Shown here in pieces: positions 8,496-11,111 of a stretch of 64,000 nt of DNA. Every line of letters begins with the position of its first letter. Position 1 is the first letter of the stretch. The translations under genes were made by a program, and so were the position numbers. Under the pieces are notes generated by a model. It made no database searches, was not told the DNA's origin, and worked only from the letters and a program-made list of their open reading frames with translations. Source of the stretch: Candidatus Eiseniibacteriota bacterium (GTDB lineage Bacteria; Eisenbacteria; RBG-16-71-46; JABDJR01); assembly GCA_963783375.1 (NCBI GenBank), contig CAWANH010000001.1, positions 64,001-128,000 of the forward strand. Reading direction: 5' to 3'.

Positions 8496-8912
8496 TCAAC
8501 GGATCGATGCCGAGGTCACCGTGGTGGTCTTCTCCAGGTACCGGACGGCGGTGGCCGTCACCTGCACCCGCGACTTGAGACCCCCGCCCTCGGCGGTGAT
8601 GGGGCGCACATCGATGAGCGCGTCCGCCCCCACCTTCCGGGCCTCGTCCTTGAGGGTCTTGATCACCTGGTCGTAGGTGGACCGGTCGTTGTAACTGGGA
8701 TCCATGTCCTGCTTGGCGAACAGGGTCCCGATCACGATGTGGGGCACGCTGATCCCGCCCTCGAAAACCTCGATCTGGGCCGATTTGTCCTTGGCCGGGA
8801 ACTCGGTGGCGTCCATCCGGACGAACTTGACCCCCGAGCCGCAGGCGGAAATCGCCGCCGCGATGCCGATCAGGAGCGCGACCCTGGGGGCCGCGCGAAG
8901 GATGTTCTTCAT
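8496..8912 (-). CDS. small lipoprotein, YbjQ-like
   Basis: ATG 8912 with GGAG SD; lipobox ISAC; LKDEARKVGADALIDVR..VTATAVRY. Confidence 0.65.
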   Translation of the reverse strand: MKNILRAAPRVALLIGIAAAISACGSGVKFVRMDATEFPAKDKSAQIEVFEGGISVPHIVIGTLFAKQDMDPSYNDRSTYDQVIKTLKDEARKVGADALIDVRPITAEGGGLKSRVQVTATAVRYLEKTTTVTSASIR

Positions 8913-9050
8913 GGTTCTGGTCTCCCCGCGTGGGTGGTTACGGGTCCGCCCTCCGGCAGTTCCCATGTCGGTGATCGTCCATCGAGGGGGCGACCTTCAC
9001 TGAAAATGGCCCCCGGACCCCGAGAATCGGGGTTTTTCACGCGATTTCGT

Positions 9051-9080
9051 TTGACAGCCCGCGGCCCCCGTTGTTTCATT
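9051..9080 (+). promoter_or_regulatory. putative sigma70 promoter of the histone gene
   Basis: Exact TTGACA at 9051-9056; weak -10 (TTTCAT) 17 nt downstream. Confidence 0.4.
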
Positions 9081-9157
9081 TCGCCGGAAATCAAGGGCGG
9101 GACGGCGCCGGAAGGCCGTTCCACGGTTTACCCCCTTCCTCGAACAGGAGACACAGG

Positions 9158-9373
9158 ATGGCCAAGAAGATGGCGAAGAAGAAGACGGCGAAGAAGGCTG
9201 CAGCCGGTGAGCTGATCATCTCCAAGTCGCGCACCAAGGCCGCGGTCAAGAAGTGCAACGTGTCGAGCGACTTCTACGCCGCCCTCGACAAGAAGGTCCG
9301 GGGATTGATCGGCGATGCCGAGCAGCGGGCCCTGGGCAACAAGCGGAAGACCCTGAAGCCCCAGGACCTGTAG
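9158..9373 (+). CDS. bacterial histone-fold protein (Bd0055/HBb-like) with Lys-rich N-terminal tail
   Basis: ATG 9158 with AGGAG SD; 71 aa; ELIISKSRTKAAVK..NVSSDFYAALDKKVRGLIGDAEQRALGNKRKTLKPQDL fits the histone fold with the RKTxxxxD signature. Confidence 0.85.
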   Translation: MAKKMAKKKTAKKAAAGELIISKSRTKAAVKKCNVSSDFYAALDKKVRGLIGDAEQRALGNKRKTLKPQDL

Positions 9374-9404: not shown

Positions 9405-9438
9405 CAAGCGGCGTCGCAAGACGCCGCTTGTCGTTTTT
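9405..9438 (+). terminator. intrinsic terminator after the histone gene
   Basis: 11-bp perfect stem CAAGCGGCGTC/GACGCCGCTTG, GCAA tetraloop, followed by TCGTTTTT. Confidence 0.8.
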
Positions 9439-10898
9439 CAGCGGGCGGCGCCCACCGCCTCCACCTGCGAACGCGCCATCTCCGGCTCCCCGGAAAGCTC
9501 GGGGAGCCGCGCGCTCCCCTCGGCGAAGCGTGCGATCACTTCCGCGCTTCCCGCGCACTCGGCCTCGAAGGCGTCGCGCACGAAATCCGGATCCAGGGCC
9601 TCGCCGGTCCGATAGAAGTTCCTCCGGTCGAAGAGCCGGCGAAGCGCGCGGTTCAGGGCGCGAGGGCCGCACCGCGAGGTCATCTCCCGGTCGAGCAGCA
9701 GACCCACCAGGAACCCCCGTGAGTAGACCAGCTGGTAGGTGTCCATCCGATCCATGTGACGGGCCGCGGCGGCCAGGGTCACGTTGGACGGCGCCTTGCG
9801 GGTTTCGCGCTCCTTACGCGCGGTGACCTCCCGAAGACCGGCGGGGCTCAAGACCCCCGCCTCGACCATGAACCGGTAGGAGAGGTACTCGGTCATCCCC
9901 TCCACCAGCCAGATCAGGTCGGGGGAGTTCTGGTAGGGCGGCTCCGGACCGCCGGTGAGCGCCCCTCCGAGGTAGAAGTGCAGGCACTCGTGGGAAGCGA
10001 GCTGGGTGAGCGACTGGGGATCCGCAAAGCGGTCCGGGCTGGCCACGCAGAGAAAGGCGCCCTCCTCGCTGTTGCCGCTCATCACGCTCCGCCCCGGCGG
10101 CGCGGGTCGGGTGCGGTAGACCGCGAGGACGGCGAGGGAGTCTCCCCGGGGCGGCGCCCCGAAGAAATCGACCATTCGCCCGAGCACCGGGAGAAGCCGG
10201 TTGGCGATGGTGAGGCCGGTGCGTCCGGGCGCCGAGGCCTCGGTGAGAACGGTCACCGTGACCGGACCCCGGGCGAGGCGGGTGGAGGCGAAGTCGCCCC
10301 CCGCCACCACCCCGCTCCAGAGATCGTGGGCGGTGCCGGGGCGGTAGGCGCCCCCCTCATCCGGCCAGGACGACCAGAGGGAGGAGCCGGGGAGCGGCTC
10401 GACGCGCACGGTGACATCCAGGGGCGCGTAGTGGTCGATCCGAAGGGGCAGGAGGAAGAGCGAGTAACCCAGAATGACCAGACGGGAGCGGTCGACGAAC
10501 GACGCCTCCGCGGAGACGTCGGGCTCGTAGGACCGCACGCGGTAGCGGAGGACGGCTTCCCGGGGGCTTCCGGCCAGATGCCAGCGGGCGGTGCCCGATT
10601 CGGTCTCGGCGGTGACGGCGATCGGGCGGCCGGAGGGGTCGGTGGCGGAGAGGCCCTCGACGTGTCCGGACTGGTCCTGGAGAAGACCCCAACCGTCCAG
10701 GAGCCGGAAACCGCGGTGCGCGCCGCCGAGGCCGGAAGCGTGAAGGACGACGTCGAACCCCTCGCCGGGCGCCGGCCGCACCCGGTATTCAAGCGCGACT
10801 CCCTGGTTCCCGGTTCCCGGGCGCCACAGGGAGGCCACGAGCCCCAGGGCCAGGACCGGGAGCAGGAACCGCAGATACGCTTTGCGAGGTCGGGTCAT
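9438..10898 (-). CDS. secreted zinc metallopeptidase (M61/M1-like gluzincin)
   Basis: HECLH (HExxH), WLVEGMTEY, YSRG; N-terminal signal/TM segment. Confidence 0.75.
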   Translation of the reverse strand: MTRPRKAYLRFLLPVLALGLVASLWRPGTGNQGVALEYRVRPAPGEGFDVVLHASGLGGAHRGFRLLDGWGLLQDQSGHVEGLSATDPSGRPIAVTAETESGTARWHLAGSPREAVLRYRVRSYEPDVSAEASFVDRSRLVILGYSLFLLPLRIDHYAPLDVTVRVEPLPGSSLWSSWPDEGGAYRPGTAHDLWSGVVAGGDFASTRLARGPVTVTVLTEASAPGRTGLTIANRLLPVLGRMVDFFGAPPRGDSLAVLAVYRTRPAPPGRSVMSGNSEEGAFLCVASPDRFADPQSLTQLASHECLHFYLGGALTGGPEPPYQNSPDLIWLVEGMTEYLSYRFMVEAGVLSPAGLREVTARKERETRKAPSNVTLAAAARHMDRMDTYQLVYSRGFLVGLLLDREMTSRCGPRALNRALRRLFDRRNFYRTGEALDPDFVRDAFEAECAGSAEVIARFAEGSARLPELSGEPEMARSQVEAVGAAR

Positions 10899-11111
10899 GG
10901 GCTCGGTCCGGCATCGAGGAAGCACGTGCCGGCGAGCCTCCGGAGACGGCGACCCGCGAGCGCGATCGGCTCGGTCCCCCGATAGGACGACCGGGCCGGG
11001 TGGTTTATAGTTCCAACATCGGCACGGGAGGACCGGGGCTTAGCCGCGGCGGCCCGCGGAGGAACGCGGGCGGGGGAAGCGGCGTTCACCCTTCGGACGG
11101 CCTGGAGATCC

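Follow-up and report, generated by a model that had tools for sequence, protein, structure and literature searches.

A gene for a face-to-face (FtF) bacterial histone with a lysine-rich N-terminal tail was found on the forward strand at positions 9158..9373 of the window, the 64,000-nucleotide stretch of DNA analyzed here (positions 64,001 to 128,000 of contig CAWANH010000001.1, assembly GCA_963783375.1, Candidatus Eiseniibacteriota bacterium). We consider it likely, with a probability of about 0.8, that this monocistronic gene encodes a protein that forms a four-copy ring around which approximately 60 bp of DNA wraps irrespective of its sequence, with disordered basic tails adding grip on the DNA. 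The gene was assigned by sequence and profile matches and comprises 71 codons plus a stop codon. Its translation confirmed what a preliminary description of this DNA had reported from the letters alone: a basic 71-residue protein with seven lysines among residues 1–13 and a C-terminus reading RKTLKPQDL. The product has a pI of 10.4 and a net charge of +14. Its Lys/Ala-rich tail (residues 1–18; 9158..9211, +), with seven lysines and one glutamate, is predicted to be disordered, with pLDDT values below 50 at residues 1–5 and 7–15. The histone-fold core (residues 19–71; 9212..9370, +) includes R57, N61, R63-K64-T65, D70, and the C-terminal L71, and in the predicted model it consists of helices at residues 27–33 and 38–60 (23 residues) and a one-turn helix at residues 68–70. 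Comparison of the 53 core codons revealed purifying selection: relative to genome G002, 4 codons differ by synonymous changes only and none by a non-synonymous change, and relative to genome G001 the corresponding counts are 12 and 2. The protein had no Pfam match and no NCBIfam match near the cut-off. The host genome is 4.73 Mb in size and 97% complete, with a G+C content of 69%.

Sequence searches of the PDB returned only two matches, HLp of Leptospira perolatii (9QT0, E 6.8e-4) and HTkC of Thermococcus kodakarensis (9F2C, E 4e-3), and a profile search returned the same structures with E values of 8.3e-7 (9F2C) and 1.1e-4 (9QT0). Foldseek placed HLp and HTkC chains at ranks 1–4 and HBb at rank 20, with none reaching E 0.001, and all of the listed fold matches were histone folds. 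The proposal of a bacterial histone fold in the preliminary description was borne out by these sequence matches and the predicted fold. Its comparator, the Bdellovibrio histone Bd0055/HBb, proved to be the wrong one, as HBb gave no sequence match at E values up to 10 and the protein is of the FtF type, like HLp and HTkC.

FtF tetramers are held together through two residues close to the end of α2, one arginine and one asparagine, and through a free C-terminus (PMC11390915; PMC12701072). Tetramers of HLp wrap approximately 60 bp of DNA (PMC12701072), and the R45A variant of HTkC is a dimer (bioRxiv 10.64898/2025.12.06.692711). Alignment showed that R49, N53, R55, D62, and F63 of HLp correspond to R57, N61, R63, D70, and L71 of the window histone, which therefore carries the FtF Arg/Asn pair (R48/N52 in the profile, R49/N53 in HLp, R45 in HTkC) together with a free C-terminus at L71. 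R57, N61, R63, T65, and D70 were invariant in all 94 aligned sequences, a set drawn from 121 sequences after over-long starts, cut ends, and some near-duplicates had been excluded. The same 94 sequences share the basic α1 residues characteristic of FtF histones (K23, R25, and K27) and the RxTxxxxD clamp between loop L2 and α3 that marks α3-truncated histones, here R63-K64-T65 and D70. Histones of the latter class have an α3 of only 3–4 residues and a shorter α2 than nucleosomal histones, and here α3 is cut to one turn (68–70), α2 has 23 residues, and the chain ends at residue 71; the archaeal nucleosomal (HMf-type) fold requires a full-length α2 and an α3 of approximately 10 residues, which the single turn does not provide. 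The DNA-contacting residues S14, K15, K17, K21, T56, and T57 of HLp correspond to S24, R25, K27, K31, K64, and T65.

Structure prediction with four copies of the protein yielded an interface score (ipSAE) of 0.87, compared with 0.00 for the best of three controls, and the partner pLDDT was at least 82. Of 30 solved pairs, 20 reached the threshold applied to this score, as did 1 of 23 single chains, and the pass may reflect likeness to the solved FtF structures. Three runs agreed, sharing at least 97% of contacts, and no confident contacts were predicted before residue 17. The predicted dimer–dimer interface lies at the end of α2, in L2, and in α3 (residues 56–57, 60–61, 63, 67, and 69–70); these contacts are displayed for one copy, so that the second side of each dimer, and hence ring closure, lies outside the display. 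Cys33 (9254–9256), located in the short L1 loop, was invariant in all 94 close sequences, and the model shows it packed against the partner. It is probably a packing residue, with Ile or Leu occupying the position in more distant sequences.

Among the named histones, HLp (PDB 9QT0/9QT1/9QT2; PMC12701072) was the top single-sequence match in the PDB. It likewise has the bacterial α3 fold, retains the tetramer residues and a hydrophobic C-terminal residue, carries basic or polar residues at the DNA-contact positions, and has a disordered N-terminus. The two proteins share approximately 37–38% identity and differ in L1, which is two residues shorter in the window histone and contains the invariant Cys33, in the clamp (RTT in HLp, RKT here), and in the N-terminus, where approximately 7 unresolved residues in HLp compare with an 18-residue tail containing seven lysines. 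Unlike in the HLp case, the host genome has a second histone as well as HU/IHF, and the histone gene is not next to an SMC gene. HTkC (PDB 9F2C; PMC11390915; bioRxiv 10.64898/2025.12.06.692711), the top profile match, shares the tetramer arginine (R45, equivalent to R57) and a short C-terminus, and superposes at an rmsd of 0.4 Å over 37 columns. It differs in being archaeal and tail-less, with an L1 four residues longer. HTkC hypercompacts DNA at high concentration. The FtF-like histones of the haloarchaea Halovenus (locus L064) and Halonotius (locus L065) resemble the window histone more than the two solved FtF histones do: identity is 51–54%, L1 is equally short, and the NVSSDFYAALD stretch is shared. 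However, these proteins are tail-less and acidic and, in a tree of weak resolution, fall outside the 80-row clade to which the query belongs. HBb/Bd0055 of Bdellovibrio bacteriovorus (PDB 8CMP, 8FVX) has the α3-truncated fold and the RKTxxxxD motif in common with the window histone, but it is a DNA-bending dimer without the FtF Arg/Asn pair.

The histone gene lies between two genes on the opposite strand (8496–8966 and 9438–10925, both −) and therefore forms its own transcription unit. A −35 box, TTGACA (9051..9056, +), was invariant in all six aligned family genomes. It is followed by a likely extended −10 region (9072..9080, +), in which TG precedes a T-rich hexamer (TTTCAT or TTCATT) that does not have the usual A as its second letter, a feature shared by 6/6 family genomes. 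Because of this missing A, a consensus promoter scan found no promoter at the gene. Across the genome, TAnnnT occurred 16–18 nt from 80 of 228 TTGACA sites, and 9 sites had TTnnnT alone. The promoter is likely real. A Shine-Dalgarno sequence, AGGAG (9146..9150, +), lies 7 nt 5' of the ATG at 9158, with similar spacing in six family genomes. Downstream, an intrinsic terminator hairpin with a T-rich tail (9405..9438, +) was identified by a terminator scan, folding energy, and comparison with relatives. The hairpin itself (9405–9430) has a folding energy of −22.3 kcal/mol (z −4.95; none of 200 shuffles was equally good), and a comparable hairpin, its stem letters altered, is found after the histone gene in 4/4 correctly oriented relatives. 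The monocistronic layout, Shine-Dalgarno sequence, and strong terminator named in the preliminary description were all recovered, while its claim of a dedicated promoter held for the perfect and conserved −35 box and has to be qualified for the non-canonical −10 region. High abundance, which it had also suggested, may be expected by analogy with other family members.

Several further observations were made around the gene. A similar promoter site with a deviant −10 region was seen at C28:554107, 348 nt upstream of groES, and the motif is common to these two sites only. The upstream neighbor (8496–8966, −) encodes a lipoprotein-like product with a weak YbjQ match, and its divergent arrangement with the histone gene is kept across the order; the downstream neighbor (9438–10925, −) is peptidase M61-like, and no functional link to the histone was seen for either. 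A structured 5' leader was considered and rejected (z −0.02 and 0.46, with poor conservation). RNA sequencing runs were not used as evidence of expression, as the RNA contigs were mostly 80–95% alike and hence came from other organisms, a fraction of 0.05 of words was found in two runs, and such contigs give neither transcript level nor strand.

A family search recovered 1842 proteins at E ≤0.001 among 1848 candidates. All of the 120 homologues listed from these 1842 carry a tail of 9–20 residues with a net charge of at least +2 (at least +3 in 117/120), counted after over-long predictions had been trimmed to a Met no more than 26 residues from the core and in a ranking that favors tailed matches. 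The tail, which the preliminary description had presented as a distinguishing feature, is therefore the family norm, in agreement with the report that basic tails occur commonly among FtF histones from bacteria (PMC11390915). The listed homologues contained 105 distinct tail sequences. At the genome level, 66 loci were found, mostly labelled Myxococcota, Planctomycetota, Methylomirabilota, or Eisenbacteria, plus two from haloarchaea. A start could be assigned in 79 of 81 loci (five duplicates included), and net tail charge was at least +3 in 68 of them and 0 or below in 6. Since charge is kept while tail sequence and length drift, these patterns would favor a polycation role over a code that is read.

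Some orthologues departed from the common tail or core layout. Six from Planctomycetota (L036, L048, L053, L056, L060, and L061) have tails of 38–57 residues built of repeated Lys/Ala units, of H1-like length. Acidic tails, with 0–1 basic and 3–4 acidic residues, occur in the FtF orthologues L072:1477-1692 and L076:1498-1695 (genomes G038 and G021, from one genus of the same class). Locus L058:3998-4375 (+) encodes two FtF folds in tandem within 125 aa, the halves being identical in DNA over 55 codons, which means that the duplication is very recent or else arose in the assembly as an artefact. Within the phylum, an FtF gene was present in 15 of the 153 genomes with a completeness of 85% or more, including 6/6 genomes of the host's own family and 0/61 and 0/30 genomes of the two largest families. 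A tree of 111 rows and 55 columns, from which HLp and HTkC were excluded and in which bootstrap values had not settled, left transfer and descent undecided. A search for phage-encoded relatives gave 57 pattern matches, none of which was confirmed.

The same genome contains a second histone gene, which encodes a tail-less protein of 64 aa (L087:1489-1683, −, equivalent to G000:C28:1173238-1173432). It was first flagged by a weak match to Pfam PF00808 (E 0.07). Its product matches HBb with an E value of 1.4e-12 and shares 28% identity with the window histone. As this gene matches HBb and the window gene does not, the Bd0055-like gene of the genome, judged by sequence, is the C28 locus. Histones of the C28 type were found in 13 of 153 phylum genomes using a single-protein query; all 13 copies have Asp in place of the FtF Asn (N61), and their C-terminus is longer. 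Both histone types occurred together in 9 of the 15 FtF-bearing phylum genomes, which are kin, and we claim no statistic for this association. Two HU/IHF genes were also present, and no DUF1931 match was found in the genome. In addition, G000:C29:61930-62292 (+) encodes a 120-aa protein made almost entirely of Lys/Ala/Thr/Arg repeats, which is H1-like by composition and resembles the histone tail, and a 358-aa protein on contig C3 opens with a similar long basic repeat. Bdellovibrio has two histones and HU (PMC12701072), and the accessible parts of three papers (PMC11390915, PMC12701072, bioRxiv 10.64898/2025.12.06.692711) contained no statement on FtF and dimer histones in one genome.

These results suggest a pathway in which the histone gene would be transcribed as a single-gene unit between a promoter and a terminator of its own and translated, as the Shine-Dalgarno sequence and homologues indicate, from the ATG at 9158. 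Monomers would pair into histone-fold dimers, and two dimers are predicted to join where R57/N61 meet R63 and the opposite free C-terminus, a mechanism demonstrated for HLp and HTkC (PMC12701072; bioRxiv 10.64898/2025.12.06.692711). By analogy with the HLp contacts, DNA would likely wrap the basic rim through K23/S24/R25, K27, K31, and K64/T65. The four disordered tails would likely serve as polycations on entry, exit, or neighboring DNA, comparable to the Lys/Ala repeats of H1-type proteins, with no code read from their sequence. The protein would act beside the HU/IHF proteins, the H1-like protein, and the separate HBb-like dimer histone of the genome.

An alternative account of the tail retains the same FtF wrapping histone and treats the tail as a regulated switch: dedicated enzymes would acetylate or methylate its lysines, and a sirtuin or an HDAC-like enzyme would remove the marks, so that chromatin is opened or closed as in eukaryotes and Asgard archaea. 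The seven tail lysines would provide substrates, and histone tails of Asgard archaea are acetylated, with the acetylation erased by Sir2 (bioRxiv 10.64898/2026.07.02.735847). The genome encodes three HDAC-family proteins and one Sir2 protein; however, their genes lie on other contigs than the histone gene, and among 14 control genomes HDAC-family genes were present in 9 and Sir2 genes in 10, which makes their presence uninformative. No SET domain was found in the 97% complete genome, and the 105 distinct tails among the 120 listed homologues contain no conserved sequence. To the preceding points in favor can be added a sirtuin gene on the same strand as the histone gene and 0.25–2.4 kb upstream of it in 10 related loci, most of them labelled Myxococcota (L016, L031, L032, L033, L035, L046, L050, L055, L059, and L066; directly adjoining in L032, L055, and L059). 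A survey of neighbors (369 open reading frames, 75 loci, 122 families) showed DUF6178 (30 loci), a hydrolase (18), and a threonine aldolase (15) to be commoner than the sirtuin, whose position is therefore likely clade synteny. It stays a lead for tail acylation because of the Asgard precedent. A Pfam scan of 68 of the 122 families, which covered each of the 55 multi-locus families plus 13 of 67 singletons, found no dedicated modifying enzyme near the histone gene: it gave one Sir2 family and no match to an acetyltransferase, SET, or HDAC. We therefore regard a regulated tail as unlikely.

It is very unlikely that the protein is instead an HBb/Bd0055-like dimer that bends or coats DNA. Bacterial dimer histones are defined by the loss of R48/N52 and by the lack of a confident multimer above the dimer (PMC11390915); the window histone keeps both residues as R57/N61, its chain ends one residue past D70, and its four-copy model contains a confident second interface. 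It has no sequence match to HBb at E values up to 10, and the HBb-like gene of the genome is the separate C28 locus with Asp for N61 in every copy. The possibility of no coding gene, or of a different start that would make the tail longer, shorter, or absent, is slighter still and can be considered negligible. The missing Pfam and NCBIfam matches and the in-frame TTG at 9071 and ATG at 9170 would allow it, whereas the 1842 homologues and the synonymous bias of divergence argue for a gene, the TTG at 9071 lies inside the promoter region, and the Shine-Dalgarno sequence fits the ATG at 9158. The second ATG (9170; residue M5), from which the preliminary description had derived a shorter-tailed form, is an improbable start: the codon is Met in 3/6 family genomes and Ala, Val, or Lys in the others, and it has an SD-like match of only 4 nt at a distance of 11 nt. 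A start at M5 would still leave a 14-residue tail with five lysines.

The FtF family, its tetramer, DNA wrapping, and basic tails have already been published (2024–2025). The present analysis places FtF histones in the Ca. Eisenbacteria lineage and shows that one genome can carry both the FtF and the HBb type. New here is that the host encodes, besides the tailed FtF histone, an HBb-like histone without a tail at a separate locus, together with HU/IHF and an H1-like protein. A literature search that was thin in subscription papers found no paper joining "histone" with "Eisenbacteria", and with similarly few subscription papers covered it found no test of bacterial histone tail function and no study devoted to bacterial tail modification. 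A broader and quite improbable view is that of a two-histone bacterial chromatin, in which a tailed FtF wrapping tetramer, a tail-less HBb-type bending dimer, and an H1-like protein act together; the FtF tail lysines would be reversibly acylated, with a sirtuin as eraser, tuning compaction, and mixing with the dimer-type histone, in which the tetramer Asn is missing, could cap the ring or open it. If true, bacteria would have a chromatin regulated through histone tails that is independent of the one in Asgard archaea and eukaryotes. The window histone is a small natural tailed FtF histone within a family whose natural tail variants span 9–57 residues and are basic or acidic, and these variants would be useful for addressing the role of histone tails in bacteria.
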